Positions 426-58,660 of a DNA stretch of 64,000 nucleotides are shown here, one piece after another. Position numbers and translations under genes: made by a program. The stretch covers positions 1-64,000 of the IMG/VR virus record IMGVR_UViG_3300044825_003843, one strand, 5' to 3'. Below the pieces are notes generated by a model, which had not been told where the DNA came from, made no database searches, and was given only the letters and a program-made list of their open reading frames with translations. The stretch's first letter is position 1. Each line of letters opens with the position of its first letter. Origin of the DNA: a virus (taxonomy: Duplodnaviria; Heunggongvirae; Uroviricota; Caudoviricetes).

Positions 426-1202
426 ATGAAGACAATTAGACAATCACTGACTGAAATAGTTAACTTTGATTTTGTTAATGCATCACAAAAAGAAATTGAA
501 AATATACTTCCGACCTTTGGAATGAACAATGAATACATTAGTGAAATACCTCCCATGTTCTCGAAATATATGGGATGGGGCATTAAATTTTGGCAATACC
601 CAAACCAACTTAGTAAATTACTTTGTCATTTGAAAGGAAAGAAAATTAATTCATACTTAGAAATTGGTGTAAGGTATGGTGGTACATTTGTTTTAATAAA
701 CGAATTACTTAAAAGATATAATAACTACGTGGAATCTCATTGTGTCGATGTTATTCCTGCTTCTGAAATATTACACACCTATCAACATGAATTTGCAAGA
801 GATAGGTTTTATTATCACCAAACCCCATCACACAGTTCTACTTTCTTTGATACACTTACTGGTGTTGACCAAATATCTGTCGCCATTACTACAAAAAAAA
901 TTGATTTAGTATTCATCGACGGATGCCACACCTATCCTTGTGTTAAACAAGATTATGTAACCGCACTTATCTTAGGTGCAAAATACATTATCTTTCACGA
1001 CATAAGTAACACTAACTCGGAAAGTACTAGATTGATTTGGAGTGAAGTCAAAAAAAATCACAAGAAGACCTATGAATTTATTGACCAATATGAAGGTATG
1101 GACGCTAATTACTTAGGTATTGGACTTGTAGAAGTTTCACCTGAGGATGCAGTATTTCCGATGTTCGAATCAAATTATCCAGGTGTCGAGTTGTCGTTGT
1201 AA
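426..1202 (+). CDS. class I SAM-dependent methyltransferase, CmcI/cephalosporin-hydroxylase-like (sugar O-methyltransferase family)
   Basis: WQYPNQLSKLL...YLEIGVRYGGTFVL (motif I) and DLVFIDGCH match CmcI-family signature (Q.P.....IIE.G...GGS ... LVFIDSDH). Confidence 0.6.
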   Translation: MKTIRQSLTEIVNFDFVNASQKEIENILPTFGMNNEYISEIPPMFSKYMGWGIKFWQYPNQLSKLLCHLKGKKINSYLEIGVRYGGTFVLINELLKRYNNYVESHCVDVIPASEILHTYQHEFARDRFYYHQTPSHSSTFFDTLTGVDQISVAITTKKIDLVFIDGCHTYPCVKQDYVTALILGAKYIIFHDISNTNSESTRLIWSEVKKNHKKTYEFIDQYEGMDANYLGIGLVEVSPEDAVFPMFESNYPGVELSL

Positions 1203-2440
1203 TATTCTTCTATTTCCTCTGAGAAATTATCTTCGATGTATTTGGTTATATATGGGGCAAGTTTCTCCCTCATTTTCATTATTTCTTCATAGTTTTCCTC
1301 TCCTGAAGAAAGAGAAATTTCTCTAACAACATTGAAAATAATTCTTTCCATGTATTCGTCATAACTATTAAATGACCATGGTGCCAACCATTCATAGGTA
1401 TTTCTTATAAAATTAGGTAACATCTCAAACAATCTTCTTTTGAGATAAACAGGAATTACCGATTCTGTAACTAAATCATTGTTTGTACCACAGTGAGGAC
1501 AGATTGGTAAAGACTTTTTTCCTTTATGAATTGTTTGTGTAAACTTCTTTTTGCAGTTAACACACTTGACCCACTCCTCTCCTGATTTTTTTTCTTCCTT
1601 GATATTAATTTTGATTTTAACTTTGGTAACCTTTGGAGTTATACCTAAAAGTCTACAAACAGACAATCTTGTGTTTCCCGCAACTAAGTATGGTGGATGG
1701 TTGTCTGCGTATGCAACTATAGGTGTTTCAACTATTCCTCCATTTTTGAGCGGTTCCATCGAATGTTTAATTATCCTTTCCTCACTCCTACCCCATTGCC
1801 CATGTATAATATCGAACAAATCTTTATATGTTTCTATTGTCCAACTATCCGTATTTTCCATCTTCGACCATTCTTCATCAGTTAATGATTTCACATCAGC
1901 CCTTTCATAAGCACTATGAATATCATCAATAAGTTTGTCTAATTGTTTATTTGAAAAATGCTCAAAGTTTACTTGAAGAACGTCGTCTTGTAACCAATTA
2001 AGAAAATGATTCATAAATTCGTTTTCTTCCGTTTGGAACTCAGGTTTGACCCATTCGATTTTTTTTTCTTCTGAATTTTCATTAAGATTATCTACGTTTT
2101 TTCTATTCAAAATTTTAATAGACCTCAAAATCTGTTCATATTTTTCTCGACTGAGACTGAATTGACCCTCATTTGTCCAATATTGTATTGCTTCAGGTTT
2201 TGGATGTTTGATTGCATCGTAAACCCATTCTTGACCTTGTTCAGGATTTTTCAAGTTCCATAATGTAACTATATTCGAATCCCCTTCCCAATTTGATGGA
2301 ACTAATTCACCATTTACATGTGGTTCGGTGACCCACAAAACACCTTTGTTAACCAAATCAGAAAAATCAAATATTTCTCTTTCGGATTCACTTAAACCCA
2401 TCATCTCTTTAATTCTTAATATGTTTTCTTGTAAGTTCAT
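1175..2440 (-). CDS. hypothetical protein with conserved N-terminal MNLQENILRIKEMMG leader and C4 zinc ribbon (family member 1 of 3)
   Basis: Track ORF 1175..2518; conserved leader starts at internal Met (ATG 2438-2440); CVNCKKK...CPHCG zinc ribbon; start chosen by paralog alignment. Confidence 0.55.
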   Translation of the reverse strand: MNLQENILRIKEMMGLSESEREIFDFSDLVNKGVLWVTEPHVNGELVPSNWEGDSNIVTLWNLKNPEQGQEWVYDAIKHPKPEAIQYWTNEGQFSLSREKYEQILRSIKILNRKNVDNLNENSEEKKIEWVKPEFQTEENEFMNHFLNWLQDDVLQVNFEHFSNKQLDKLIDDIHSAYERADVKSLTDEEWSKMENTDSWTIETYKDLFDIIHGQWGRSEERIIKHSMEPLKNGGIVETPIVAYADNHPPYLVAGNTRLSVCRLLGITPKVTKVKIKINIKEEKKSGEEWVKCVNCKKKFTQTIHKGKKSLPICPHCGTNNDLVTESVIPVYLKRRLFEMLPNFIRNTYEWLAPWSFNSYDEYMERIIFNVVREISLSSGEENYEEIMKMREKLAPYITKYIEDNFSEEIEEYYNDNSTPG

Positions 2441-2441
2441 A

Positions 2442-3587
2442 TTATTTTTCACTTCGATAAATAACTTTGAATCTTTGTTTTTCCTCAATAGGTAATTCCA
2501 ACTTTTCGAACTTTTCATTTTCTACTTGGAATCTTTCTTCATCTTTGTATTTCCACTGACCATAAAAAGAATAAACTTTACCAGTTGTGGTATCAACTAC
2601 AGTATCTCCACCTCTCGGTTCTAACCCTTCATATTTTTTGATTTTATCTTCTATAGACATTTCAGGGTTTTCCTCTAAACTATCAAACCAATTCGTAAAA
2701 TCTTCACCCAACTTTTCTTTTAATTCAGGTGATATTCGTACAGATTTTTTATCGGTAAATTTATTCGATACAAAATCATTAAATATTTTTTTAACATCTT
2801 CGTTAATGTTTTCATCTATAACCAACACATGTTGTTGTAACAATAAAGACATCAAATTATAATCAGGGTTTGATAATAAATCTTGATATATCATTTTAAT
2901 TTCCGCCGAACTCCCCATACCACTTGTAATGTATCCAAGTTTCCTAATCATCGCCAAATAAATTAAAGTTCCTAATTTTTTTCCTCTTAATTTTTCGGGT
3001 ACTCCTTTATAAAAATGAATCCTATTTTGCGAAGGTTCCAAGTTCACGTAAGTTGTTCTATCTTTAACATCTAATTCTTTAGCACATTCGTAAGGAAATT
3101 TAATTCTATAAACCTTACCACCTTCCTGAGTAACACCATAAGCTCTTTCTAAAGATTTTTCATCTTTAGCTACCAGTGGACCAATAATTTCGAAATTGGA
3201 GGGGTCACAATTCACAACTTCAGATTTTGGTTTTTGTTTTCCCCTCAAACCATAATAATCCGAAAATATTGAATACAGCAATGAGTTGAATTTTTTTGAA
3301 CCATGGGATATCATATAGTTCAGGTATTTGTTGTCTAAATTTTGTAAATCTTTAGATAAAACAGGTTTCTTTACAAATGGGTCTTTATCAATTACAACTG
3401 AGTTTTTGAATTTAACAAAATCACCATCAGATGATTGTAGTTTATCTTGTAATAAATTTGAAATCTCCTTCTTGTATTTAGGAAAATTTTTTATATTCAT
3501 CATAACATAAGAATCTGATGGTACATCTAAGGTTTCATTGATACCCATCATTTCCTTAATCCTTTGTATGTTTTCTTGTAGGTTCAT
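2442..3587 (-). CDS. hypothetical protein with MNLQENIQRIKEMMG leader (family member 2), possible GNAT-like motif
   Basis: Track ORF 2442..3608; leader at internal Met; 1-nt spacing to neighbours; RGKKLGTLIYLAMIRKLGY resembles acetyltransferase motif A (weak). Confidence 0.5.
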   Translation of the reverse strand: MNLQENIQRIKEMMGINETLDVPSDSYVMMNIKNFPKYKKEISNLLQDKLQSSDGDFVKFKNSVVIDKDPFVKKPVLSKDLQNLDNKYLNYMISHGSKKFNSLLYSIFSDYYGLRGKQKPKSEVVNCDPSNFEIIGPLVAKDEKSLERAYGVTQEGGKVYRIKFPYECAKELDVKDRTTYVNLEPSQNRIHFYKGVPEKLRGKKLGTLIYLAMIRKLGYITSGMGSSAEIKMIYQDLLSNPDYNLMSLLLQQHVLVIDENINEDVKKIFNDFVSNKFTDKKSVRISPELKEKLGEDFTNWFDSLEENPEMSIEDKIKKYEGLEPRGGDTVVDTTTGKVYSFYGQWKYKDEERFQVENEKFEKLELPIEEKQRFKVIYRSEK

Positions 3588-3588
3588 A

Positions 3589-4065
3589 TTACTTTTTCTT
3601 TTTAACACAATTGGGGTATCTTTTACCGAACATTGTTTTCATTCCTTTCTGAGTATATCCTTTCCAACATCTCTCAGTAATTTCTGATTCGTTCTGTTCT
3701 TCTTTCATATCTGAATCTGACATATATTCGGAACAAGTTGTTTGGTAAATATCAATCAAATACTGACCAAAGAAAATTCTTGACATACTTCTCAAATAAT
3801 CCATAACATCACTAATGTAGTCCTGCTCGAATATGTTTTCGTCCACATCATCCAATAATTTATCAACTGCATAATCAATTACAGCGTCTGCATATTCATA
3901 TCCATCCTCAAAATCATCACACAGAGTTGGATATTCTACTTCTGCTCTGAATATATATTCTTTCAGTGTCTCACGATTAGCTCTCCTTTTAATTGAGTTT
4001 GGAATAGTGGACTCAGTTATACCCATCATCTCTTTAATCCTATGTATGTTTTCTTGTAAGTTCAT
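3589..4065 (-). CDS. hypothetical acidic protein with MNLQENIHRIKEMMG leader (family member 3)
   Basis: Track ORF 3589..4149; leader begins at internal Met (ATG 4063-4065); nucleotide sequence atgaacttacaagaaaacat conserved in all three. Confidence 0.5.
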   Translation of the reverse strand: MNLQENIHRIKEMMGITESTIPNSIKRRANRETLKEYIFRAEVEYPTLCDDFEDGYEYADAVIDYAVDKLLDDVDENIFEQDYISDVMDYLRSMSRIFFGQYLIDIYQTTCSEYMSDSDMKEEQNESEITERCWKGYTQKGMKTMFGKRYPNCVKKKK

Positions 4066-5549: not shown

Positions 5550-5819
5550 ATGTATTACATTATAACAGAGGAACAGGTAAAAAGATTAGTCAAAGGTTGG
5601 AAAGTCAGTGAAGGACAGTTAACAAAAACTTTCAATTTCAAAACTTATAAAGATGTTTTGAAATTTGTTAATAAGGTAGGTTCAATTGCTGAAAAACAAA
5701 ACCATCATCCTGAAATGTTAGTTAAATATAATTCAGTAAAAGTTTCACTGTTTGACCACGGAGCCAATAAAGTTTCGGACAAATGCCACAAGTTAGCCGA
5801 CCTAATCAATAAGACCTAA
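5550..5819 (+). CDS. pterin-4-alpha-carbinolamine dehydratase (PCD/DCoH family)
   Basis: FNFKTYKDVLKFVNKVGSIAEKQNHHPEMLVKYNSVKVSLFDHGANKVSDKCHKLADLI matches PCD core (F.F..F..A..F..V...AE...HHP......Y..V...L.TH). Confidence 0.7.
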   Translation: MYYIITEEQVKRLVKGWKVSEGQLTKTFNFKTYKDVLKFVNKVGSIAEKQNHHPEMLVKYNSVKVSLFDHGANKVSDKCHKLADLINKT

Positions 5820-6491: not shown

Positions 6492-6779
6492 TTAGATTAT
6501 GATAATCAATTTGTCATCGTGTAAAACTATTTGACCATCTTTGGTCTCCAATTCACAAATTGTATTTTCATCAATGAGTTTCGAAAGTAAAAATTCAGTG
6601 ATAGGATAATAATCTATAAACCCAACTTCTAAGTTATTACCAACTTTATTTGTGTATTTTACGTATCCTACTTGGTTAGGTAAGTTTTCCCCTTTGTTAG
6701 GTTTGAAGAAGATATACGAACCCTCCTGAACCAAATATCCTTTAATCTTCCCCGTAGATAGTTTTTTTGTATTTTTCAT
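6492..6779 (-). CDS. hypothetical protein
   Basis: 95-aa ORF. Confidence 0.35.
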   Translation of the reverse strand: MKNTKKLSTGKIKGYLVQEGSYIFFKPNKGENLPNQVGYVKYTNKVGNNLEVGFIDYYPITEFLLSKLIDENTICELETKDGQIVLHDDKLIIII

Positions 6780-7146
6780 TTTCTTTCTCGAACTTTTTGA
6801 ACATTATACCACTCAAAATATTAGCTAAATTTTCGTCAGGACCACCTATATTTTGTTTCTTTTCCTTCTCAGTTAGACCTAATTTTTGGTGTTGGTATTC
6901 ATGAACCCACTCATGAGTAATTGTTCTAAGTATGTCAACTAAAAGTCTGTCTTTTGCCAAAACAATAATCCCCATAGGCCTCATTCTCAGACCTGTTGTC
7001 ATATTAAATTGTCTGTTGTCTGTAAATTGAATATTGACCCCTTGTGATAATGGTAATTGTTTTTGAAGGAAAACAATAAACTCTTTTATCACTTCCGTTT
7101 CCTCGGAGTTGAAAAAGTTTCTTATATTTTTGAGTGGTAATTTCAC
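6742..7146 (-). CDS. putative zinc metallopeptidase (HExxH motif)
   Basis: ITHEWVHEYQH contains HExxH plus downstream His. Confidence 0.35.
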   Translation of the reverse strand: MKLPLKNIRNFFNSEETEVIKEFIVFLQKQLPLSQGVNIQFTDNRQFNMTTGLRMRPMGIIVLAKDRLLVDILRTITHEWVHEYQHQKLGLTEKEKKQNIGGPDENLANILSGIMFKKFEKENEKYKKTIYGED

Positions 7147-7186: not shown

Positions 7187-8275
7187 CTATTTTATCTTAT
7201 CCACTAATTTTAATGCAGAAGCAATAATTTGGTGCATATCGTAGTAAATATAATTTGCCAATCTACCTCCAAAGAAAATGTTTTTTTCTTTTTTTGATAA
7301 CTCGGAATATTTCTCATAGAGTGAGCTGTTTACTGAGTCTCTTATTGGATAGTATGGTTCATTATATCCTGTGTAGTTTTCTGGGTATTCATAACTCACA
7401 ATTGTACCTTTTTGTTGTTGGAAATCAAACCATTTGTGTTCTACTATTCTTGTGTAAGGGATGTCTTTGTCGGTATAGTTCATAACAGGCACACCTTGAA
7501 AGTTATCGTCCTCCAAATGTTTTTCTTCCCATCTTAAACTTCTGTATTCTAACTTTCCGAATCTGTAGTCGTAAAATCTATCAATTTCTCCTGTGAATAT
7601 TACTTTACTACATAGTGAATTATATTTCTCCCTACTTTCGAAATAATCGACCCCTAATTCAACATCAATCCCATGCAACATTTTTTCAAATATTTGGGTG
7701 TAACCACCTATTGGCATTCCAACGTATTTGTCATCGAAATAACTACTGTTCCATGTAAATCTTACAGGTAATCTTTTTATAATATATGAAGGTAACTCAT
7801 CACAAGACTTGTTCCATTGTTTTTCCGTATATCCCTGTATTAATATTCTATATATGTCTTCCCCAACTAATGATTTTGCTTGTTGTTCTAAATTGACAAT
7901 TTCCCCTTTGTATTTTTGATTTTCAATAACATTTCTCGCATCAATTTCGTTATTAACCCCCCATATTTGATTGAAGGTCCACAAATTGAACGGTAAGGAA
8001 TATATTTTGTCTTTATAGTTAGCTAAAACATTATGTGTATATTGTTTGAATTCCGCGAATTGATTTACATAGTCCCATAGGTATTTTTCATTGGTATGAA
8101 AAATATGAGCCCCATGTTTGTGAACATGAATTCCATTGATGTTTTCAGTATAACAATTACCTCCAATAACATTCCTCTTATCAATCACTAAACATTTATA
8201 TCCTAATTTAGTCAATTCATATGCACAAGTTGTGCCGAAAATTCCCGAACCCACAATAAGGAAATCATACATCAT
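7187..8275 (-). CDS. glf: UDP-galactopyranose mutase
   Basis: N-terminal FAD fold DFLIVGSGIFGTTCAYEL...VIDKRNVIGGNCYTE...GIHVHKHGAHIFHTN and near full-length colinearity with bacterial Glf (YTEKQW, RFTWNSSYFDDKYVGMPIGGYT, YTRIVEHKWF, YYPI). Confidence 0.93.
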   Translation of the reverse strand: MMYDFLIVGSGIFGTTCAYELTKLGYKCLVIDKRNVIGGNCYTENINGIHVHKHGAHIFHTNEKYLWDYVNQFAEFKQYTHNVLANYKDKIYSLPFNLWTFNQIWGVNNEIDARNVIENQKYKGEIVNLEQQAKSLVGEDIYRILIQGYTEKQWNKSCDELPSYIIKRLPVRFTWNSSYFDDKYVGMPIGGYTQIFEKMLHGIDVELGVDYFESREKYNSLCSKVIFTGEIDRFYDYRFGKLEYRSLRWEEKHLEDDNFQGVPVMNYTDKDIPYTRIVEHKWFDFQQQKGTIVSYEYPENYTGYNEPYYPIRDSVNSSLYEKYSELSKKEKNIFFGGRLANYIYYDMHQIIASALKLVDKIK

Positions 8276-9438
8276 GAAAAACTAAAAGAAAAACTGTTTA
8301 AATTTATAGTCGGTCTTGATAATTTATTTGTATATGTTTCTTTTAAGGTATTTAACAAGGTACCAGTATTGTGATAAATTCTATCGTCAATCAAAAAACA
8401 AAGATTCGGGTATGGGTTCGGTCTATCAACAGAAGCCATAAATTCTACTAAGTTTAACGCTTCTTGATATCTACCTTGAGCGTCCAAAATTTCTACTTTG
8501 TGGAACAGGTGTTCATTTCTATTAGGACAAAAATCTTCAGCAAAATCAAAATATTTGAATGTTTTGTCTTTTTCACCCATGAATTCATATGCTTGTGCCA
8601 TCAAGATTAGTGCAAAATACGCCATTTCATTATTTGATGTTGCAATTGGGTTTTCAGGTGTCCATCCGTGAACTAACTCCAAATACCTTTCGAAATACCA
8701 TATACCCCTCCTCGCATACTCGTCCGAGTGTTGCTTACCAAAAGCTAATTCATCAGGTCTACCATAACAGTCAGTATAACTTTTTGCAATATACCATAAA
8801 TGATATAAATCATGTTTAACTTTATCACCAACAATGTTATCAATTTCCAATTCTAAAGCATCTCTCAGAAACTTTCTTGGAACGTGCCAAGTTTGCCCAT
8901 CTTGAGAAACCCTGTGTCTAAATGATTGAGGTAAAGTTACTCTTTGGAAGTTTTCACCAATATTGGGTAAATGAATAGTTTCATGTCTTTTATCTAATTG
9001 GAAAAACCAAGGTAATTTAGCGTTCCACATCCATGTTCTCATGTATCTTGTACCTCCATTCACAGCATTAACATTCCAACTCTCTACTTTGGTATCATCT
9101 AATATACTCCAATCAAAATCGTTATCAATCTCTAAAGTTTCGTCCGCATCCATTCTCAAAATCCAGTCACAACCATGGTCAGTTTGTAATGCAACTTGTA
9201 AAGTATGATTCCTATTCCAGCCAGGAAAGTTCCATTCAATAAAATAAGTAAACCCTTTGATTCCTTTTTGTTTAAAAAAGGTGTCAATTATTTCTCTCGT
9301 GTTGTCTCCTTTACCATTACATTGTATTACATAATAATCGATATATGGTGCCACAGACTCCAACATTCTTGTTATTGTCGGGGCTTCATCACCGACCATC
9401 GCATTCAAACAAATTTTAGTTTTTTTATTCATATACAT
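8272..9438 (-). CDS. glycosyltransferase (GT-A/GT2-like N-terminal domain) with C-terminal TPR-like region
   Basis: ICLNAMVGDEAPTITRMLESV...YYVIQCNGKGDNTREII and RMDADE (DxD-like); helical repeat C-terminus. Confidence 0.5.
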   Translation of the reverse strand: MYMNKKTKICLNAMVGDEAPTITRMLESVAPYIDYYVIQCNGKGDNTREIIDTFFKQKGIKGFTYFIEWNFPGWNRNHTLQVALQTDHGCDWILRMDADETLEIDNDFDWSILDDTKVESWNVNAVNGGTRYMRTWMWNAKLPWFFQLDKRHETIHLPNIGENFQRVTLPQSFRHRVSQDGQTWHVPRKFLRDALELEIDNIVGDKVKHDLYHLWYIAKSYTDCYGRPDELAFGKQHSDEYARRGIWYFERYLELVHGWTPENPIATSNNEMAYFALILMAQAYEFMGEKDKTFKYFDFAEDFCPNRNEHLFHKVEILDAQGRYQEALNLVEFMASVDRPNPYPNLCFLIDDRIYHNTGTLLNTLKETYTNKLSRPTINLNSFSFSFS

Positions 9439-10672
9439 AATTCATTTTTTGTTCTTCATCATAAAACTTTCTTATGGAAACACTATTTTGAAATTTTTGA
9501 GAGTGTCCTTCTTCTTCTATCCAATTCCAATCAAAAAATCCTAAGTAATTAATTCTTTCATGAATTGCTAAATCATAGTAATCTCTTATTAATCTTGCTC
9601 TTCGATTGATATCCTGAGCGTTGTTGTCTGTTGTAGTGTCTCTACTACTATATTGAAAATATAAAACTTTTTTCACATGTATCATCCTTGTATTCAAAAA
9701 AGTCCTGATGAGTATTTCCAAATCATCTGCTACAGGTGTATTTTTATTGTGTCCTCCGATTTCATGATACAGATTTCTTTCCCACATTCTTACGTGGTTG
9801 GGCATACTAATGTTGAATCTTATAGACAAAGGGTTGATATCAGGATATCTGTGTGCTAATATTTCATTTCCATCAACAGTTTCCCATTCATGTCCAGCAT
9901 AACCAAAATCGAAAAAGTTATCATGTCTTGCATACCAATTACCTGTCCAATCGTGGTCATAATATTTAAACTCACCTGTTTCATAGAACTCACAACAATC
10001 TGAATATAAAAATCCCGCGTCAGGAAATCGTAGAATAGCATCGTCTGCAACCGCCAAACAATTTGTGGTAAGACAATCGTCATGGTCAAGTTCTATTAAC
10101 CAATCACCATCACACAACATTGCCGCTCTATGTTTTGCCAAACCAACATTCCCACCCGTTATTGGATTTAGTTTGTATATTTTAACACGGTAATCTAACG
10201 ACTCTATGTCTTTTAGAATTTTGAAGGTTTCTTCGTTTGGTGAGTCATCAACAACAACCCATTGCCAATTCTTAAGTGTTTGATTTTTTAAACTTTCATA
10301 CGTTCTATAAATTCTTTCACCCGTATTATACGTGGGGGTAAAAATTGAGAACCTTGGTCTTATAACCTCACAGGATTTAAACACGGTTTGACAAACAATA
10401 TCATTAGCCAAAACACTATCAGGTAATTGTTGTTGATAGTATCTATAAATCCTAAGTAATCTGTAATTGTTTATTGGAATATCCTGACCAAACGAGATAA
10501 TTAAGTCAGGTTTATACTTTGTGAAATCAAGTTCCATGTTACCATCATAAGTAAGTGAATAAACTTCAACACTTTCATGTAACCCTTCCTCCCAATATAC
10601 ATCAGAAGTCAATGTGTGGTGACCAATTCGGTCCCAACCATATACAATAGCCGTAGGTTTTTTTGTTTTCAT
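9425..10672 (-). CDS. family 2 glycosyltransferase
   Basis: FSIFTPTYNTGERIYRTYESLKNQTLKNWQWVVVDDSPNE ... IELDHDD (GT2 DxD motifs). Confidence 0.7.
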   Translation of the reverse strand: MKTKKPTAIVYGWDRIGHHTLTSDVYWEEGLHESVEVYSLTYDGNMELDFTKYKPDLIISFGQDIPINNYRLLRIYRYYQQQLPDSVLANDIVCQTVFKSCEVIRPRFSIFTPTYNTGERIYRTYESLKNQTLKNWQWVVVDDSPNEETFKILKDIESLDYRVKIYKLNPITGGNVGLAKHRAAMLCDGDWLIELDHDDCLTTNCLAVADDAILRFPDAGFLYSDCCEFYETGEFKYYDHDWTGNWYARHDNFFDFGYAGHEWETVDGNEILAHRYPDINPLSIRFNISMPNHVRMWERNLYHEIGGHNKNTPVADDLEILIRTFLNTRMIHVKKVLYFQYSSRDTTTDNNAQDINRRARLIRDYYDLAIHERINYLGFFDWNWIEEEGHSQKFQNSVSIRKFYDEEQKMNYVYE

Positions 10673-10709: not shown

Positions 10710-11042
10710 CTAATCACCATCATCATTCCAAGATGTTAATATGAATTCTAAATTTATGTAATTGATTTGATTATACTTGTTTTTTGTTACGGATGCCTTC
10801 ATTCCTCCTGTTGCGGTGAAGAATGACTCCCAAGGTCTCAAAGTTTTACTTTCGAGCGCCCCTTTAATCGCATTATCAATCAAATATCTAGCATTACTTT
10901 TCAAATCGTCAACATTTGGAACTCCCCGACCAGGAACACCAGCCCATGTCCAATTCAAAAATCTCATAGTTTTTTCTGTTTTTTCCCAATTGAAATGCTC
11001 CATGACGGTTTCAATCATGTCCTCGAGTTTCTTTCGTTTCAT
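10710..11042 (-). CDS. hypothetical protein
   Basis: 110-aa ORF. Confidence 0.4.
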   Translation of the reverse strand: MKRKKLEDMIETVMEHFNWEKTEKTMRFLNWTWAGVPGRGVPNVDDLKSNARYLIDNAIKGALESKTLRPWESFFTATGGMKASVTKNKYNQINYINLEFILTSWNDDGD

Positions 11043-11061
11043 ATTTTTTTGTTTAAAGGAA

Positions 11062-11079
11062 AACTCCCCGAAGGGAGTT
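11062..11079 (-). terminator. putative rho-independent terminator hairpin
   Basis: aactccccgaagggagtt stem-loop immediately downstream of the 11084..11824 gene, followed on minus strand by T-rich tract. Confidence 0.4.
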
Positions 11080-11083
11080 CTAA

Positions 11084-11824
11084 TTAACTTACCGCATCTA
11101 ACGCCATGGACATATCACCATCCCACTTAATGATTTTGGACTTCGGAACCCAAAACTCCATCTCTCCAATCTCTTCTACTCTTTTCAAATATTCCTCTCT
11201 AAATCTGTTCGCTTGGGACTTGTCTGTGATATACTCAACTCCCATGTGACCAGCACAAATCTTACCCATACGAGTCAACATTGAGAACTCATCAGTCAAA
11301 GTTTTAGCACAACACATACAAACGTCCCCTCTTTTAACTGTCATCTTTCCTGAGAACTTAACCGCCTTCGGAGAAATTGCCAATATCTTAGTGATATCAA
11401 GAAGGATTGGATTGAACTTCAAACCATACTTCTCTTTCAATCCCTGACCCACAGTTCTTCCCACTTTGATGGTTTCACCTGGTGTCGGCCACTTGACATG
11501 GATAGTTTCGTTTTTGTCTTTCTCTTTCTGAATTGTTTTGGTTGCTGCTTCAACCTGCTTGTTAGTGAGTGTCCCGTAAGTAATCAACTTTTTCTTGATG
11601 TCAGCTACAAACGCACTTGGACCATTGTAATCAGCAATAATTTTGAGTTCTTCAGGTAACTCCTGAACGTTCACTTTAACTTCTGAATTCAAACACTTCT
11701 CAACCGCGGCTTCTTGTGCGGGAGTCAAACCTCCGTAACGTGAAATTGTTTCTTTCATTTTCATAACAAAACTGTTTGAACCTTGATAGTTTCTTACTTT
11801 GCTAACGGTGTTAATTGTTGTCAT
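11084..11824 (-). CDS. hypothetical protein (possible virion protein), preceded by conserved promoter motif
   Basis: 246-aa ORF with internal YGxLTxxQ repeats; conserved upstream motif 11836..11857. Confidence 0.5.
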   Translation of the reverse strand: MTTINTVSKVRNYQGSNSFVMKMKETISRYGGLTPAQEAAVEKCLNSEVKVNVQELPEELKIIADYNGPSAFVADIKKKLITYGTLTNKQVEAATKTIQKEKDKNETIHVKWPTPGETIKVGRTVGQGLKEKYGLKFNPILLDITKILAISPKAVKFSGKMTVKRGDVCMCCAKTLTDEFSMLTRMGKICAGHMGVEYITDKSQANRFREEYLKRVEEIGEMEFWVPKSKIIKWDGDMSMALDAVS

Positions 11825-12614: not shown

Positions 12615-13529
12615 ATGAGTAATAGGTTAAAAAAACTTGCAAGTATTATTAGTGATGAATTCAGTGATAATTTAACAAAAATCTACGGTTCAGTTTTGAC
12701 TTTTCAGTCAGAAAATCCTGATTATTTTGTACCAACTTTTACCGCCAATGATACAATTAAATTGGTATATTATATCTATTCTCTCAAAAAAACTGATGGT
12801 TTTGACTTTGCTGAAAAAATTATCCCTGAGTTACATCTTGCACAATTTTTTGATTATAATAAAGTAAGTGTACATCAGGAAAATTGTGATAATTGTGATG
12901 GTGATGGAAATGAGACATGTCAATATTGTGATGGAAATGGGCAGATAAGTTGTGACAGTTGTGAGGGCGAAGGTGAAGTAGATTGTAATATGTGCGATGG
13001 AGAGGGTAGAACAGAATGTAGTGAATGCGATGGTGAAGGTGATATCGATGGAGAAACATGTGATAATTGTAGTGGGAACGGTGAAGTTGAGTGTGATACT
13101 TGTGGAGGTGGTGGTAAAAAAACTTGTAATAGTTGTGGTGGTGATGGGTATGAAAGTTGTGATGAATGTAGTGGCAACGGGTCAATAAATTGTGATTACT
13201 GCGATAATGATGGTCAAATAGATACTGAAGATTTCGATTATATAATACATGAATATCTGATATTTGACGATGACCTTATAGATGGTCTTTACAGGGATTG
13301 GCAAAATAACACACCCTTAGGTCATACCCTCGAGTTCAAGGGAAGACCAACAGTTCTCTTAATCAATAGTAGATGGGAATATGGTCAATTCGACCCATCA
13401 GTTAAAGAGTATGAAAAATATTGTTTCAACATATCCCCATTCAATTCAACAAGACTATTCTACAAAAGAAAAGGTGTATCAGTTGAAGGAATTAGTGCAA
13501 ATGACGAACCAGATACTTTATTGATTTAA
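12615..13529 (+). CDS. protein with about 14 tandem DnaJ-type CxxCxGxG zinc-finger repeats
   Basis: CDNCDGDGNETCQYCDGNGQISCDSCEGEGEVDCNMCDGEGRTECSECDGEGD...; N- and C-terminal flanks paralogous to 14205..15050. Confidence 0.65.
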   Translation: MSNRLKKLASIISDEFSDNLTKIYGSVLTFQSENPDYFVPTFTANDTIKLVYYIYSLKKTDGFDFAEKIIPELHLAQFFDYNKVSVHQENCDNCDGDGNETCQYCDGNGQISCDSCEGEGEVDCNMCDGEGRTECSECDGEGDIDGETCDNCSGNGEVECDTCGGGGKKTCNSCGGDGYESCDECSGNGSINCDYCDNDGQIDTEDFDYIIHEYLIFDDDLIDGLYRDWQNNTPLGHTLEFKGRPTVLLINSRWEYGQFDPSVKEYEKYCFNISPFNSTRLFYKRKGVSVEGISANDEPDTLLI

Positions 13530-14204: not shown

Positions 14205-15050
14205 ATGAAAAATACAATCAAGAAAATTTGTTTAACATTGTTAGAGGATTGTCCTGAATCCCTCAATGGAATTTATTTGGAAGTGAAAAAACAACTTAAA
14301 TCACAACCTAATTATTTCTCGAGATTTTCTACTGCTGAAAAGTTTGAAATCGTTTACGGTATTTTTTCTCTCAAACAAACAGGACGTTTTGATTTGGCTG
14401 AACAAATTTTACCAAATATCAAGTTAGTTTCAATCTTCAATTTTTTATCAGATGATTTTGCAGAAATCGATTGTCCAAAGTGTGAAGGAGGTGAAAACCG
14501 ATGCAAGGAATGTAACATGTTCGGTGTAGTCAAATGTGATGATTGTGATGGTGAGGGTAGCCAATTTTGTTACAAATGCTATGGGACAGGTGAATACGGA
14601 AATGCCGATTGTGATAATTGCAGAGGAACTGGTCAAATTAGATGTAAGGTGTGTAATGGAGATTCAATGTTAACTTGTCCTGAATGTGGTGGTGACAAAG
14701 TTTTAACCTGTAACGAATGTGGTGGACAAGGAATGTTAGAATCTGAACAAGTGAACTTTAACCTATACGATTATATAATTTACGATAAAAATATATTACG
14801 ATATCTGTTCGATAGAGCCGAGTTGTTCAAACCTATCGGAGAAAATTCGAGCTTTTCTGATTCAATATCTTCGAATGAGAATATACTTCATTTAGGGTTA
14901 AGGTTTGATACCTTTGAACCAAAATCATTTGTTCAAGAAAAAGATTATTGTTATTTCATAGGTTCTATTAACGACGAAGAAAAAATAAATTGGAATATTT
15001 CTCCATCACCAATAGTCTCGACATTACCTCACAAGTATGTAAAAAAATAA
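14205..15050 (+). CDS. paralogous CxxCxGxG zinc-finger repeat protein
   Basis: DCPKCEGGENRCKECNMFGVVKCDDCDGEGSQFCYKCYGTGEYGNADCDNCRGTGQIRCKVCNGDSMLTCPECGGDKVLTCNECGGQG; shares flanking domains with 12615..13529. Confidence 0.65.
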   Translation: MKNTIKKICLTLLEDCPESLNGIYLEVKKQLKSQPNYFSRFSTAEKFEIVYGIFSLKQTGRFDLAEQILPNIKLVSIFNFLSDDFAEIDCPKCEGGENRCKECNMFGVVKCDDCDGEGSQFCYKCYGTGEYGNADCDNCRGTGQIRCKVCNGDSMLTCPECGGDKVLTCNECGGQGMLESEQVNFNLYDYIIYDKNILRYLFDRAELFKPIGENSSFSDSISSNENILHLGLRFDTFEPKSFVQEKDYCYFIGSINDEEKINWNISPSPIVSTLPHKYVKK

Positions 15051-19474: not shown

Positions 19475-20329
19475 TTAAATTATTTCTATCTGAACCGAGT
19501 CAATTCGTTTTATACTTAACTCAAAATATTCTTTAGAAATTTCACTACCGATAAATTTTCTTCCTGTAAGTATTGAAGCTTTAGCAGTAGTTCCACTTCC
19601 CATAAATGGGTCATAAATAAGTTCTTCAGGGTTCGACCAACTAAGAATATGGTCTTTCACTAGTTGTATTGGAAATATTGCAGGATGTTGATATGCTATT
19701 TCGTCTTCTTGTCCGTTTTTCGATGTCTTATATGTCCAAACATTATATCTTTGTCCGTACTCATCAATTATTTTCTTTTTCCTTTCAATCATACTTCCGT
19801 CAACCTGCCTTGATGTATTTTTTCCCCAACTACCGACTTGTCCTCCGTAGACGTTTTTCCTGTCTTTTATTGAATTAAAAGTTTTTGGTTTACCCTTAGA
19901 AAACACAAACATATATTCAAAAATCTGATGATACCTGTTTGAAGATGGATTTGAAAAATTATTCTTCATGTAAATCATAGTATCATGGATATTGAATCCA
20001 ATTTCTTTGAAGAAAAGAGCCTGTCTGAATGAAGTGCCAGTTTCACTCCCTTTTTCCGTTCCATCTCCAACGACCCATACAACAACCCCGCCTTGTTTAG
20101 TGGTTCGATAAAGTTCCTTTGCAATATTTTCGAAATCAAATGAATAACCATTGAATTCGGTTTTTATACCTGAAATATGATTATTGTAAGTTCTTAAATC
20201 ATCATATGGTGGTGAAGTTATTGTTACGTCAATAGTATTATCAGCAATTTTACCTAAGGTTGTAAGACAATTTTCTTGATATATTTTATTAAATTGAATC
20301 ATAAATTTCGTAAAATTTTTTTGCTGCAA
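19475..20329 (-). CDS. DNA methyltransferase, beta-class (N4-cytosine or N6-adenine), SPPY motif
   Basis: motif IV TSPPY near N-terminus and motif I DPFMGSGTT near C-terminus: beta-class permutation as in M.PvuII. Confidence 0.8.
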   Translation of the reverse strand: MQQKNFTKFMIQFNKIYQENCLTTLGKIADNTIDVTITSPPYDDLRTYNNHISGIKTEFNGYSFDFENIAKELYRTTKQGGVVVWVVGDGTEKGSETGTSFRQALFFKEIGFNIHDTMIYMKNNFSNPSSNRYHQIFEYMFVFSKGKPKTFNSIKDRKNVYGGQVGSWGKNTSRQVDGSMIERKKKIIDEYGQRYNVWTYKTSKNGQEDEIAYQHPAIFPIQLVKDHILSWSNPEELIYDPFMGSGTTAKASILTGRKFIGSEISKEYFELSIKRIDSVQIEII

Positions 20330-20806: not shown

Positions 20807-20829
20807 CAATTAGTTAAAAAAACTTTGAG

Positions 20830-21780
20830 AATACAAGTTCTATTTGAGAATCTTTAGAAGGATTATGGTTTCCCTCCGTTTCCACTTCCTTTTGAGAAGT
20901 AATCCTCAGTGACGATTAATTAGGTTAATCAAACCTTGAGTTGTCAGATACTCTCTTGATACTTGCTACTCCTCGATGATGCCTCACCAATACTTCCTTG
21001 CGAGAATAGAGAACTTTTTCAAAAATCGTGTCGGGTTTGGGACCCTTCACGGCCGTGAACTTCTCACGACTATGTAGTCACCTTTCACTGACAACTGACG
21101 GACACTTTTCCGTTTGTAATTATTATTGTTAATAACATTTAACAAATGAATTGGTTTGTGGATTTGGAAAGTAGCGGTCCGTCAACCTGCTTCCCCATCT
21201 TTTGAACGAGGAAATACTGAACTACTCTCTGAGACATCCCTGCCTCCATACTTCAAGTTTACTTCATAACTCATGCCTTGGTAGGCTAAGGTTAAGGAGA
21301 ACAACAGCACCACCTGTACGAACTCATACCTTTCGGTTTTAAGTCAACTCTGATATTGAATCACGCAATTGTATAGTTGGATGACCATACTTCTTGCAGG
21401 AGTTCTACGGGTTATTCTTATCGGTGTTCCCACCTCAACCAAACGACCCACATCGCTTGGTCATCATTCCATTTCGCCTACAGTGTCACCCTCAGCTACT
21501 CAGGGACAATGATATCCCGCTTGTCTACTCAAGCTCAACAGAGGACACCCCTATCGAGCCGCAACCTACTTCAACCGAGGTAGGTCACTTTATACTGCTT
21601 TCACAGTTTATTTTATGGACTATAGACCGCCCAATATCTTGAATCAAAGAACTATCAAGTTTGAAGGAAAAAGGTATTTTTACGACCTGAAACCTTTCAG
21701 GAACCTTTACAACCCGTTTCCTTCAATTGTTCTACAAAACTAAGAAGGGTTTTTGATACTTCCAAATTTTATTAGAACTT
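20830..21780 (-). ncRNA. candidate large structured non-coding RNA (ORF-free, GC-elevated block downstream of tRNA); strand uncertain
   Basis: about 1 kb with stops in all six frames, markedly higher GC than flanks, many local helices (e.g. TTCACGGCCGTGAA at 21046..21059); no known ncRNA family recognised by eye. Confidence 0.3.
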
Positions 21781-21788
21781 TTTTTTGT

Positions 21789-21860
21789 TGCGTGAGTAAG
21801 AATCGAACTTACGACCTAAAGGTTATGAGCCTTCCGAGCTACCGCTGCTCTATCACGCGA
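21789..21860 (-). tRNA. tRNA-Met (anticodon CAT), initiator-like
   Basis: 72-nt cloverleaf CGCGTGA-TA-GAGC-AGCGGTA-GCTC-G-GAAGG-CTCATAA-CCTTT-AGGTC-GTAAG-TTCGATT-CTTAC-TCACGCA-A; C1:A72 mismatch and A11:U24 typical of bacterial initiator tRNA. Confidence 0.8.
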
Positions 21861-22604: not shown

Positions 22605-22952
22605 ATGAAAGTAAAAATAAATGAAAATATCTTCAAGGTCAAAACTTTAATTGATGAAAATTCACAAACCCTTGGAATGCAGAATAAAAGTTTTGATAAT
22701 ACTTTCGATGGGTTGCTTTTTCTGATGGGTGGAAAAGAACAATGTTTTTGGATGAAAGACTGTATTATACCCTTGGATATAATAATGATTAAAAATAACG
22801 TTATAGTTAATATTCACCACGACTGTCCTCCATGTAAAGGTGATGACTGTCCTTCTTACTGTGGTAAAGGTAATATTGTTTTAGAACTTGAGGGTGGTAC
22901 TTGTGAAGAGGTAGGTATTGAACCAGGTGATTCAATAGAATATATTTTCTAG
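22605..22952 (+). CDS. DUF192 family protein
   Basis: GLLFLMGGKEQCFWMKDCIIPLDIIMI...VLELEGGTCEEVGIEPGDSI fits DUF192/COG1430; start moved to MKVKINE (ATG 22605) to avoid overlap with divergent gene. Confidence 0.55.
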   Translation: MKVKINENIFKVKTLIDENSQTLGMQNKSFDNTFDGLLFLMGGKEQCFWMKDCIIPLDIIMIKNNVIVNIHHDCPPCKGDDCPSYCGKGNIVLELEGGTCEEVGIEPGDSIEYIF

Positions 22953-23506
22953 TTTGACTTCCAAACTTTTTCTTCTACACCAATAACAAATCCAACGTAT
23001 CTTGAAAGAACAAATAGATAGTCACTTAATCTATTCAGGTAAATTAAAATTTCGTTAGGAACTGATTCCAAAACACAAAGTCTTTCTGCTCTTCTACAGA
23101 CAGTTCTACATACGTGAGCAGTAGAAACATATATGTGACCACCAGGTAGTATAAAGTTTTTCAATTCAGGAAGAACATTATCCATTTTGTCAATCCAATT
23201 TTCTAAAGATTTCACATCTTCTGAATCAACTGATGATAATTCGAAACCTAACTTAGCATTTGGGTCTTTAGAAACTACAGAACCTATTTTGAATAGGTTA
23301 TTTTGAATGATATTCAATTGCAGTTGTTGTTCCATAAATTTAGACTTATCTGAAAATAAATGGTCAGAGAGTAACCCAATAAATGAGTTCAATTCGTCTA
23401 TGGTTCCGTATGCTTCTATTCTTAAATTGTTTTTTGGGACTTTTGTTCCACCTAATAAAGAAGTATACCCTTTGTCTCCTGTCTTTGTGTATACTTTTTT
23501 ACTCAT
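22949..23506 (-). CDS. ATP:cob(I)alamin adenosyltransferase, PduO-type
   Basis: VYTKTGDKGYTSLLGGTKVPKNNLRIEAYGTIDELNSFIGL matches PduO/MMAB N-terminus (YTKTGDKGETSL...R.EAYGT.DELNS.IG). Confidence 0.8.
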   Translation of the reverse strand: MSKKVYTKTGDKGYTSLLGGTKVPKNNLRIEAYGTIDELNSFIGLLSDHLFSDKSKFMEQQLQLNIIQNNLFKIGSVVSKDPNAKLGFELSSVDSEDVKSLENWIDKMDNVLPELKNFILPGGHIYVSTAHVCRTVCRRAERLCVLESVPNEILIYLNRLSDYLFVLSRYVGFVIGVEEKVWKSN

Positions 23507-25388: not shown

Positions 25389-25404
25389 AGGGTCTATTGA
25401 CCCT
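25389..25404 (-). terminator. rho-independent terminator overlapping stop codon of MTase gene
   Basis: minus-strand AGGGTCAATAGACCCT followed by TTTTTTTATTT. Confidence 0.55.
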
Positions 25405-26282: not shown

Positions 26283-26687
26283 CTATAACAAACCTTCGTT
26301 TCGAAGTTCTTGTCTGATTTTTGTTGCTGATATCTCTTTGATGTCGTCAGGTGGAATGTGTTCTATGATATCATATCCAACACCCCTTCCAAAATTAATT
26401 GATTCGATATCAGGTATAATAATAACTTTTACCCTTTCATCACCTAAAAGTTGCCATAGGTCTCGTTTAATTTTTATTTCCACTTCTTGTGCGGTGAAAG
26501 GATTTTTTTCATCGGGTTTTATGTCCCTGACACAAATCAAAACATTTTTTCCTTCTTCGATACATTGATTTACTAACCATTTGTGACCATCATGAAAAGG
26601 TTGGAATCGTCCCACAATCATGGAGTATTGTTTACCTCCTGTGTTTTTGAGTTTCGGGTCACCTTCTACGTGAATTTTTTTCATCAC
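26283..26687 (-). CDS. nicotinamide-nucleotide adenylyltransferase, archaeal NadM-type (HxGH nucleotidyltransferase)
   Basis: VGRFQPFHDGH, ...KNPFTAQE..., ISATKIRQEL parallel archaeal NMNAT IGRFQPFHKGH / ENPFTAGER / ISGTEIRRRM. Confidence 0.65.
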   Translation of the reverse strand: MMKKIHVEGDPKLKNTGGKQYSMIVGRFQPFHDGHKWLVNQCIEEGKNVLICVRDIKPDEKNPFTAQEVEIKIKRDLWQLLGDERVKVIIIPDIESINFGRGVGYDIIEHIPPDDIKEISATKIRQELRNEGLL

Positions 26688-26690
26688 TTA

Positions 26691-44535: not shown

Positions 44536-44554
44536 TTGTGAATACAAAAATAAC
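44536..44554 (-). promoter_or_regulatory. third copy of conserved promoter-like element (TAnnTTTG + TTTGTATTCACAAA)
   Basis: tttgtgaatacaaaaataa upstream of 43115..44512 start. Confidence 0.45.
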
Positions 44555-57727: not shown

Positions 57728-58660
57728 TTAATAAGTTGAGTATTTTTTTTCGAATTCGTTAAGAAAATCAATTTTTTCCTGATAACCTAAGAATAAAGGT
57801 GCAAAGTCTATTGGAATTTCACCTGGTCCTGTTCTTTCATGAATCATTTTGGAAAGTACATGGTCCCTTACTTTATAGAACATATCGTCTCTTCTTGCAA
57901 TAACATAATCACCATTCTCAACGGTATTTGAAGCTCTTTTCTGAATACCGAATGATGTTCCATCTCTAACCCACATATCACTAGCAGAAGTAAACCAATA
58001 GGATAATTCATCATTTTGGTGCCCCCATAAAAAATCGTAATGTATTTTTAAATCTTCACCAACTATAACTTCAGGGTCGTATCTATAACTTTCAGCAACT
58101 TTTCTTGAGAAAAGAACTAACCTTGCATAGTTTGGGTTACTTATACCATCAACTAGCGGGTCTTTACCAAAAAACATATTACCTCTGTAATCAATGTAAT
58201 TTGCCCCCCAAAGACTGCCGAAATTACCTGATGCGAGTTGAGCATCGTTTCCATTTTTTCTTGGAAAAATTGAATCGCAAGGACATGTTGCCATCGCATC
58301 CGTGTTCGGATATTTTTTCAAATGTCTTTCTACTTGTTGTAAAAAGGTTGGATAAAAGAAATCATCTCCATCTAATTGTGTTAGATGTGTAAAGTCTTTA
58401 GTCATGAAATATTCGAATACAGTATTCTTACCTGTTGAAGGCGTGCCATCTGACTTGGTGACCACATAGGGTATATGGTTATTTTCACAATATTTTGCCA
58501 TTTGACTCACAAAACTACTATCTACACTATTGATTACCAAATGAACTTCATACTTTATAGAATAGTTTCTTTGGTTTAATGCTGTTTGTATACATCTAAT
58601 TGCTCTTGAGACATCCGAAGATACCAGAGGACAAATCATTAATTTTATTTCTTTACACAT
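57728..58660 (-). CDS. putative glycosyltransferase (GT-A-like)
   Basis: ICPLVSSD...EVHLVINSVD and LDGDDFFYP (DxD). Confidence 0.35.
   Translation of the reverse strand: MCKEIKLMICPLVSSDVSRAIRCIQTALNQRNYSIKYEVHLVINSVDSSFVSQMAKYCENNHIPYVVTKSDGTPSTGKNTVFEYFMTKDFTHLTQLDGDDFFYPTFLQQVERHLKKYPNTDAMATCPCDSIFPRKNGNDAQLASGNFGSLWGANYIDYRGNMFFGKDPLVDGISNPNYARLVLFSRKVAESYRYDPEVIVGEDLKIHYDFLWGHQNDELSYWFTSASDMWVRDGTSFGIQKRASNTVENGDYVIARRDDMFYKVRDHVLSKMIHERTGPGEIPIDFAPLFLGYQEKIDFLNEFEKKYSTY

Follow-up and report, generated by a model that had tools for sequence, protein, structure and literature searches.

The first 64,000 nt of the virus record IMGVR_UViG_3300044825_003843 (IMG/VR; Caudoviricetes), the stretch of DNA that we analyzed and refer to here as the window, carry a compact cassette of three genes that encode a UDP-galactopyranose mutase (Glf), a GT-A glycosyltransferase with a C-terminal tetratricopeptide repeat (TPR) domain (GT-TPR), and a second GT-A glycosyltransferase (GT), which belongs to the GT2 family and which we call GT2. 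The evidence supports a functional-looking, phage-encoded UDP-galactofuranose (UDP-Galf) module with two glycosyltransferases, and the association of the three genes is real and far beyond chance, as judged from 666 homologues of GT-TPR, 1007 homologues of GT2 and linkage in 43 dereplicated groups of related loci. In our interpretation the cassette encodes a pathway that works in the cytoplasm and glycosylates protein, with one of the phage's own proteins as the probable acceptor, and we assign this interpretation a probability of roughly 0.45.

The proposed pathway would be soluble and self-contained and would be expressed by the phage in the host cytoplasm from the genes for p110 (a small protein), GT2, GT-TPR and Glf. 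Glf would convert the UDP-galactopyranose (UDP-Galp) of the host to UDP-Galf, and GT-TPR, which we propose as the initiating transferase that recognizes the acceptor, would pick a protein or peptide by means of its TPR domain and add the first sugar. This sugar would most likely be Galf, because Glf is almost always encoded beside GT-TPR. GT2, which is akin to TarP, K4CP and SpsA, would then probably extend the glycan. The acceptor would most likely be a phage protein, and probably a virion component, because the cassette is found in phages of very different hosts and abuts genes for the tail sheath, neck and terminase in some relatives. A first-pass annotation of the same DNA had listed virion proteins, the host surface and DNA as possible targets. 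The evidence now tilts toward protein, because GT-TPR is similar to SunS, ThuS and GmaR, the enzymes are soluble and acidic, enzymes of the prolyl 4-hydroxylase (P4H) and TibC types accompany the cassette in relatives, and the hosts are varied; the other two targets stay live rivals. Of this scheme, the analysis establishes what the genes are, that their catalytic motifs are intact, their coupling and linkage, the architectural class and the companion enzymes of relatives, and the sugar used by each transferase, the sequence in which they act and the identity of a protein acceptor are inferred.

Gene order and enzymes of the cassette

The three genes occupy positions 7187-10672 (Table 1), where the first-pass annotation had described a glf gene followed by two glycosyltransferase genes. 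They do adjoin one another, but all are on the minus strand, so that Glf does not lead and is instead last in the order of transcription, GT2, GT-TPR, Glf. The ends of GT2 and GT-TPR overlap by 14 nt and those of GT-TPR and Glf by 4 nt (ATGA), which couples the genes translationally. No membrane-compatible hydrophobic stretch was detected in Glf, GT-TPR, GT2 or the small proteins encoded on either side of them (maximum KD19 of the two glycosyltransferases no higher than 1.28), and both glycosyltransferases are acidic (pI 5.2-5.6).

The identification of Glf as a clear UDP-galactopyranose mutase (UGM) is borne out by matches to PF03275 (E=1.6e-74; 250 bits as compared to a gathering score of 26.3), to NAD_binding_8 (PF13450) and to the NCBIfam equivalog TIGR00031 (393.7 bits, cut-off 303.75), and by a full-length match to E. 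coli Glf (1I8T; E=6e-142). In a global alignment with the 1I8T sequence the two proteins are 56.7% identical, and 13 of the 13 active-site positions that were checked are kept. The active-site list, which follows the structural literature on UGM enzymes, includes H56, H59, Y151, W156, R170, R174, Y181, R247, R278, Y311, Y346 and D348 in the numbering of the E. coli protein. Judged by these comparisons Glf is a genuine mutase: the residues of its active site are intact, and the activity predicted for it is the conversion of UDP-Galp to UDP-Galf. Phage glf genes as such are already annotated and have a PHROG family of their own (phrog_9677, which the window protein matches at 5.7e-136), and a Glf homologue is present in 90 GenBank phage records.

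GT-TPR had been described as a TPR-containing GT-A enzyme, and three lines of evidence agree with that description: a Pfam GT2 score of 23.2 bits (residues 18-103), which falls just below the gathering score of 23.3; a TPR-like match over residues 270-341 (Pfam), together with the TPR proteins found in a profile search of the PDB; and an AlphaFold2 (AF2) model (pLDDT 81.4, pTM 0.70) in which the GT-A and TPR domains are both visible. The top full-length Foldseek matches of this model are SunS (2.5e-12) and ThuS (1e-11), over ~385 columns; neither was matched at E<=1 by phmmer or by profile searches of the PDB. Further Foldseek matches are to generic GT-A enzymes (TarP, RmlT, GlfT2, the GT domain of LH3, and XylT1), and the galactofuranose-related enzymes GlfT2 (E about 1e-4) and AfGfsA (1e-3) are matched only through the generic GT-A core. 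By sequence, the sole PDB glycosyltransferase to match GT-TPR is GmaR (PDB 22ao; E=0.012 in a single-sequence search, 2.7e-4 in a profile search), the Listeria flagellin O-GlcNAc transferase, an enzyme of GT2 plus TPR architecture that acts on a host protein. The D97-A98-D99 motif of GT-TPR is invariant in an alignment of 41 sequences. The TPR half of the protein diverges faster than the catalytic half (47% as compared to 76% identity to the window protein), as would be expected of an acceptor-recognizing domain that tracks a lineage-specific partner. A search of BFVD showed the combination of GT-A and TPR domains to be common in giant viruses and to occur also in some phages.

For GT2, the assignment to that family holds at E=1.2e-17 for PF00535 (residues 109-234; 64.8 bits as compared to 23.3). 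Its sequence matches in the PDB are to the chondroitin polymerase K4CP (1.8e-12) and TarP (2.2e-8), and its AF2 model (pLDDT 70) is matched in Foldseek by K4CP (5e-13), TarP, WrtF, SpsA and TarS, with E values of 1e-10 to 1e-13 for K4CP, TarP and SpsA. The DDS and DHDD motifs of GT2 are invariant in 41 sequences. Since the DxD motifs of both enzymes are invariant across these alignments, it is unlikely that GT-TPR and GT2 are inactive paralogues, an outcome that the first-pass annotation had named as one that would refute its proposal.

The cassette in related phages

Most of the homologue clusters of GT-TPR and GT2 show an identity of about 62-72%, with a value near 70% for GT2, and their length is fixed. 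To place the cassette in its genomic surroundings, 80 viral and a few metagenome loci were fetched, their open reading frames (ORFs) were called and clustered, and the loci were dereplicated to 43 groups at 95% GT-TPR identity. Genes were counted as linked if they were on the same strand as GT-TPR and no more than 3 kb from it, and only groups that could be assessed given the ends of their contigs were included. By this measure Glf is linked to GT-TPR in 35 of 41 groups and GT2 in 37 of 41, followed by DUF6445 (16 of 40; often in two copies), a P4H-type oxygenase (5 of 35) and a heptosyltransferase similar to TibC and Aah (4 of 35). GT-TPR and Glf are the tightest pair of the cassette. They are directly adjacent (<150 bp) in 34 of the 43 groups, and because of this adjacency we consider GT-TPR to be probably the user of UDP-Galf. 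At least four gene orders exist: GT2-TPRGT-GLF, DUF6445-GLF-TPRGT-DUF6445-GT2, TPRGT-GLF without GT2, and GT2-carbamoyltransferase-TPRGT-GLF. A linkage that outlasts such shuffling argues for functional coupling as opposed to inherited synteny. The loci L005 and L006 form a natural glf-minus/glf-plus pair: they share 99.8% identity across the 6.9 kb that end with the GT-TPR stop codon, after which there is a glf gene in L006 and none in L005 (the break was compared at 11130-11230 of L005 and 6880-7265 of L006), and glf is on this account dispensable. The end of L006 carries Illumina adapter sequence (AGATCGGAAGAGC...), which is an assembly artefact.

That the module is phage-encoded, as had been claimed, is confirmed by the tail-fibre and SbcCD genes of the window and by phage morphogenesis genes on the contigs of relatives. 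The cassette-bearing relatives are viral contigs from IMG/VR, the longest of which reach about 317-349 kb, and in two relatives (L057 and L089) the genes that adjoin the cassette encode the large terminase (TerL), the tail sheath and a T4-type neck protein. One subgroup is cyanomyophage, with psbA, ThyX, PhoH and SpeD genes beside a cassette that includes a genuine UGM-family gene. The cassette is thus common to psbA-carrying cyanomyophages and jumbo phages, at 45-70% identity. At the DNA level, no relative of the window was found by megablast among 50,697 GenBank phage records, and in cultured or named phages even the best-matching proteins share only 27-35% identity. The sole hints as to hosts for the clade of the window are two contigs of metagenome-assembled genomes (MAGs) that were binned with the Bacteroidota. 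Cellular homologues of GT-TPR were considered and rejected: close matches are limited to two MAG contigs, binned as Saprospirales and Weeksellaceae, of which L089, the one whose flanks can be read, is itself a phage contig and the other (L090) is only 2.3 kb long.

The genes that join the cassette in relatives are varied. Of the 43 groups, 21 have some type of 2-oxoglutarate (2OG)-dependent oxygenase along with the module, and in several relatives a P4H-type 2OG-Fe(II) oxygenase (PF13640, 4.5e-16) is directly beside GT2 or GT-TPR; in the PDB this oxygenase matches nothing but protein prolyl hydroxylases, and those only weakly (E about 0.003-0.006). The locus L015 is arranged as GT2-TPRGT-P4H-X-GLF. 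Its gene X reaches 231 bits with the TIGR04414 model (cut-off 200) of the Aah/TibC autotransporter O-heptosyltransferases, enzymes dedicated to protein glycosylation, and genes related to X come after the cassette in L055, L060, L061 and L089. Other additions are a carbamoyltransferase, a GT4 enzyme and GT4-GT9 fusion proteins. In L004, L009, L016 and cluster P0193 (24 contigs) a methyltransferase domain is fused to GT2, which makes a methylated glycan plausible in those relatives. None of these companion genes was detected in the window by Pfam scans of its ORFs or, for P4H and DUF6445, by tblastn. The window gene at 11084-11824, which has the position of the P4H gene of relatives, was considered as a diverged 2OG oxygenase and rejected, as no similarity was found.

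Nature of the acceptor

Several observations weigh against a protein acceptor, or against a virion protein in particular. What GT-TPR has in common with SunS and ThuS is its architecture (TM about 0.47, at 14-16% identity), and its weak match to GmaR covers only ~90 residues of the N-terminal GT-A region. No small conserved ORF accompanies GT-TPR in every one of the 43 groups. In the window, the cassette is not beside recognizable structural genes, and the absence of P4H and DUF6445 genes there (tblastn, and Pfam for P4H) confines the link to hydroxylation to relatives. The collagen-like tail fibres encoded elsewhere in the window were considered as acceptors glycosylated on hydroxyproline or hydroxylysine, an idea that is speculation only, as their repeats are G-A-Q triplets with few Pro, Lys or Thr residues at the Y position and the window lacks a hydroxylase. 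Moreover, soluble GT-A enzymes such as TarP also use lipid-linked or polymer acceptors, and according to a preprint (10.1101/2023.12.21.572611) GT-A enzymes are able to glycosylate DNA.

The last of these points bears on DNA hypermodification, in which Glf would supply UDP-Galf and one or both of the GT-A enzymes would glycosylate 5-hydroxycytosine (5hoC), 5-hydroxymethylcytosine (5hmC) or 5-hydroxymethyluracil (5hmU) so that the phage evades restriction. The phage enzymes of the preprint have folds similar to those of TarP and JGT, and TarP is among the top matches of GT2. Lee et al. 2026 (PMC13326640) have placed the Glf of the Rhizobium phage RL38J1 (Pootjesviridae) in a pathway for glycosyl-5-hydroxycytosine, and in the Lactobacillus brevis phage ATCCB (L001 6046-9101) glf comes directly after genes annotated as 'thymidylate synthase' and 'beta-glucosyltransferase', a layout that matches the hypermodification clusters of PMC13326640, so that the DNA of ATCCB may carry a Galf-containing base modification. 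DNA-modification pathways usually cluster, yet neither the window nor the related loci with 10 kb on either side (1.59 Mb; Pfam, and tblastn with the ATCCB genes) yielded a homologue of the ThyA type or the T4 beta-glucosyltransferase type, and the ORFs of the window gave no Pfam match to Thymidylat_synt or Tet_JBP. The 2OG oxygenases of relatives might conceivably act on bases in the manner of the hydroxylases JBP and TET, but they are of the PF13640 and DUF6445 types and not Tet_JBP, and the P4H-type enzymes resemble protein prolyl hydroxylases alone in the PDB. The three DNA methylases of the window are N6A/N4C enzymes and not of the C5 type that a TET route requires upstream. A TPR domain and a SunS-like architecture are foreign to the known DNA glycosyltransferases, and the strong acidity of both enzymes and the insertion of a protein heptosyltransferase inside the cassette of relatives are likewise at odds with a DNA acceptor. 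Two genomic associations point the other way. In one subgroup, genes c17-c20 upstream of the GT-TPR/Glf pair look by eye like DnaB, ribonucleotide reductase (RNR) and thioredoxin genes, a neighbourhood that we count against a protein acceptor and treat as synteny and not as membership of the pathway. In addition, the small protein encoded downstream of Glf (p134) is fused in some relatives to a ParB-like domain, and ParB-like proteins associate with DNA-modification clusters. On balance modification of DNA is a serious rival that we nonetheless regard as improbable, and it retains that much weight because the window is only ~20% (about a fifth) of a genome of ~320 kb, a partial view that also tempers the case for a protein acceptor.

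Remodelling of the host envelope appears unlikely as well. In this scenario the soluble glycosyltransferases would work on the cytoplasmic side of the membrane and add Galf side chains to a lipid-linked precursor of O-antigen, capsule or another cell-wall glycopolymer, which could block superinfection or keep progeny from becoming trapped on cell debris. There is a precedent in the prophage enzyme TarP, which modifies wall teichoic acid, and bacterial Galf is typically found in O-antigens, capsules and cell walls. GT2 is akin to polysaccharide enzymes of the TarP, TarS, SpsA, WcaA and TuaG types, there are weak partial PHROG matches to 'GtrB-like O-antigen conversion' (5.8e-7 over ~100 residues), homologues carry the source annotation 'glycosyltransferase involved in cell wall biosynthesis', and the solubility of the enzymes is compatible with lipid-linked acceptors. 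Set against this, the window contains no GtrA-like flippase, GtrC, Wzx/Wzy, ABC exporter, membrane segment in a glycosyltransferase, integrase or lysogeny module, and the TPR domain, P4H-type oxygenase and TibC-type enzyme point to protein acceptors. The occurrence of the cassette both in psbA cyanomyophages and in jumbo phages with Bacteroidota hints, whose hosts differ in their surface glycans, argues for an acceptor that is independent of the host. A protein acceptor outside of the virion, either a host protein that GT-TPR would modify in the course of host takeover or a small phage peptide comparable to a glycocin, we consider very unlikely, even though the nearest structural analogues, SunS and ThuS, glycosylate small peptides, the cassette of the window is among non-structural, early-looking genes, and in the nearest relatives p110 and other small ORFs are conserved beside it. 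No paired-cysteine precursor peptide, C39-peptidase ABC exporter or dedicated thiol-disulfide oxidoreductase was found beside the cassette in the window or the related loci, no flanking ORF is kept across all groups, and in two subclades the cassette abuts morphogenesis genes.

Glycosylation of a phage protein is the reading that we favour among these. A more ambitious form of it, which we regard as doubtful, is that aquatic jumbo phages and cyanomyophages possess an autonomous, modular system of cytoplasmic protein O-glycosylation, in which a SunS-like GT-A/TPR enzyme fed by Glf would coat virion proteins with Galf glycans and to which prolyl-hydroxylase-type oxygenases, a TibC-type heptosyltransferase, a carbamoyltransferase and methyltransferase fusions would be optional additions.

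Relation to known glycosylation systems

SunS and ThuS (PDB 7MSN and 7MSK) share with GT-TPR an N-terminal GT-A (GT2) domain and a C-terminal TPR domain. They are soluble S-glycosyltransferases of glycocins, with polypeptide acceptors. SunS and ThuS use UDP-Glc within a bacteriocin cluster, whereas GT-TPR is paired with Glf in a viral context, and the phage cassette, unlike the clusters of SunS and ThuS, is without genes for a precursor peptide, an ABC exporter/peptidase or a thiol-disulfide oxidoreductase. The likeness is thus one of mechanism class only, and the cassette is not a member of the glycocin systems. GmaR differs in that the phage cassette has no flagellin context and in that the donor sugar is presumably different. 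The resemblance to the Skp1 pathway (PhyA-Gnt1-PgtA), in which a soluble cytoplasmic GT-A enzyme and a P4H-type 2OG oxygenase act on hydroxyproline, is by gene content only and is confined to relatives, as the phage of the window has no such oxygenase. A serotype-conversion module of the Gtr type, as known from temperate phages, would have a membrane-anchored bactoprenol glucosyltransferase (GtrB), GtrA, GtrC and an integrase, none of which was found in the window. The giant viruses, in which GT-A/TPR proteins are common, are capable of autonomous glycosylation.

Among phages, virion glycosylation in the mycobacteriophages, which Freeman et al. reportedly studied in 2023, includes to our knowledge no Glf or TPR-containing glycosyltransferase. 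That system belongs to another lineage with other hosts, and the modification is demonstrated there and predicted from genes here. It provides the precedent of phage glycosyltransferases that decorate the structural proteins of their own particles, as shown experimentally in work that is cited in PMC12582341 (its ref. 80). The first-pass annotation had called Galf-containing glycans on phage particles poorly described; the place of galactofuranose in phage biology is less unexplored than this implied, in view of the DNA-glycosylation proposal for the Pootjesviridae (PMC13326640). The RL38J1 Glf is ~45% identical to that of the window and is likewise proposed to feed UDP-Galf to phage glycosyltransferases. 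The Pootjesviridae pathway requires a ThyA homologue (5hodCMP synthase), nucleotide kinases and GT-B-like DNA glycosyltransferases, in contrast to the coupling of Glf to GT-A/TPR seen here, and genes of those kinds were not found in the window or within 10 kb of the related loci. A viral metatranscriptome from Lake Baikal includes glf, P4HA and cysC among viral auxiliary genes. For a cassette of GT-A/TPR, Glf and GT2 genes, or for its spread through jumbo phages and cyanophages, no description was found in the searchable literature.

Phages that glycosylate their own proteins are documented in very few systems, and the cassette, which is carried here by a large, uncultured freshwater phage, would add to the short list of phages that glycosylate with machinery of their own. 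Viral metagenomes from freshwater and the sea contain it in abundance, its homologue clusters numbering from hundreds to about a thousand. Galactofuranose is an unusual sugar, absent from animals and strongly antigenic. If virions are decorated, then adsorption, particle stability, grazing and immune recognition would be affected across ecologically important phages, and glycoengineering would gain soluble Galf-transferases and GT-A/TPR enzymes directed at peptides, both of them new; the modular system proposed above, if true, would be for bacteriophages what the glycosylation factories are for giant viruses. If DNA is modified instead, the cassette would define a ThyA-independent, TPR-containing class of DNA glycosyltransferases.

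Flanking genes and other features of the window

Table 1 Positions of the cassette and of other features in the 64,000-nt window
Feature	Position	Strand	Remarks
Methyltransferase ORF	426..1202	opposite to cassette	6 kb from cassette
Protein with 'LVAGNTRL' motif	1175-2518	-	447 aa
Pterin-4a-carbinolamine dehydratase	5550-5819		
p134	6742..7146	-	134 aa, basic; HExxH motif (HEWVH); 40 nt downstream of Glf
Glf, UDP-galactopyranose mutase	7187..8275	-	362 aa; PF03275, TIGR00031, 1I8T
GT-TPR, GT-A glycosyltransferase with C-terminal TPR domain	8272..9438	-	388 aa; soluble
GT2, GT2-family GT-A glycosyltransferase	9425..10672	-	415 aa; soluble; unassigned N-terminal alpha/beta domain of ~105 aa
p110	10710..11042	-	110 aa; 37 nt upstream of GT2
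Terminator-like hairpin	11043..11083	-	GAACTCCC-TTCG-GGGAGTT, then T-rich run; between a 246-aa gene and p110
Two paralogues with long CxxCxGxG-type cysteine repeats	12615-13529, 14205-15050	both +	resemble DnaJ zinc-finger region
DNA methyltransferases, N6_N4_Mtase-type (two) and D12/Dam-type (one)	19475-20329, 25394-26263, 44554-45393	all -	
GOLLD RNA	20822-21229	-	RF02032, 316.5 bits (gathering score 150); model positions 1-416, full-length
tRNA-Met (CAT)	21787-21859	-	~560 nt from GOLLD RNA
Cobalamin adenosyltransferase	22949-23506		
APS (adenylylsulfate) kinase	26283-27125	-	PF01583, 1.5e-16; directly after cytidylyltransferase-like gene
Three tandem paralogous collagen-like tail-fibre genes	33065-39447	-	695, 725 and 710 aa
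DnaJ	45753-46670		
Hc1 histone-like gene	48254-48436		
Sigma-70 factor	54875-55672		
GT-like ORF	57728..58660	-	47 kb from cassette; 'LDGDD' motif
SbcC-like gene	58660-61035		abuts GT-like ORF

The gene for p110 is likely the first of the transcription unit, and homologues of it are just upstream of GT2 in 14 of the 43 groups; p110 has no Pfam or PHROG match, and its membership of the pathway is uncertain. The hairpin that precedes it is likely the upstream boundary of the unit, an assignment that we keep tentative because a scan for consensus terminators did not list it. A scan for sigma-70 promoters gave matches no commoner than expected by chance. At the other end of the cassette, p134 is kept directly downstream of Glf in 11 of the 43 groups and directly follows GT-TPR in L005, where glf is missing. 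It has no family match in Pfam, NCBIfam or PHROG searches, and it too is uncertain as a member of the pathway. Where relatives have the fused form (e.g., L012 12277-13260), the added C-terminal domain bears a ParB-like 'LVAGNTRL' motif, which is also present in the 447-aa protein of the window.

Two distant ORFs had been tied to the module in the first-pass annotation, a connection that conserved synteny does not sustain: a homologue of the methyltransferase is present in one related locus (at +9.5 kb) and a homologue of the GT-like ORF in none, and both were rejected as parts of the module. The supposed CmcI-family methyltransferase at 426-1202 is a class-I enzyme (Methyltransf_24, E=5.7e-12), but its CmcI match is sub-threshold (20.0 as compared to 23.2 bits). 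The GT-like ORF at 57728-58660 does match GT2, but marginally (24.6 as compared to 23.3 bits). Neither ORF has a match in the PDB or PHROG. The T4 alpha-glucosyltransferase gene is also a neighbour of SbcCD homologues, namely genes 46/47, and the ORF at 57728-58660 is a candidate should any glycosyltransferase of the window act on DNA, one for which no supporting matches were found.

The auxiliary gene set of the window is unusually rich, as is evident from Table 1. The pairing of APS kinase with a cytidylyltransferase-like gene hints at activation of sulfate or of a nucleotide cofactor by the phage. Many relatives have conserved homologues of the cysteine-repeat paralogues (cluster 3) upstream of the cassette, at a distance of a few kb. 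The collagen-like fibres consist mostly of G-A-Q triplets (~160 per gene), and the C-terminal domain of each ('SD(R/K)RLK...') has the appearance of an intramolecular chaperone. Local GC content is ~0.50 across these genes, against a background of 0.32, and they account for the GC-rich block at 34-40 kb; the idea that this block is an rRNA or bacterial locus was rejected, as Rfam gave no rRNA. GOLLD RNAs are known from lake metagenomes and Lactobacillales prophages, frequently close to tRNAs, and the one found here is in a phage of a clade with ~320-kb genomes. Finally, three consecutive minus-strand genes encode a near-identical N-terminal peptide, MNLQENI(L/Q/H)RIKEMMG(L/I), at 2399-2434, 3546-3581 and 4024-4059. 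The methionine of this peptide is probably the true start of all three genes, and the peptide could be a common targeting, packaging or processing signal on proteins that are otherwise different.

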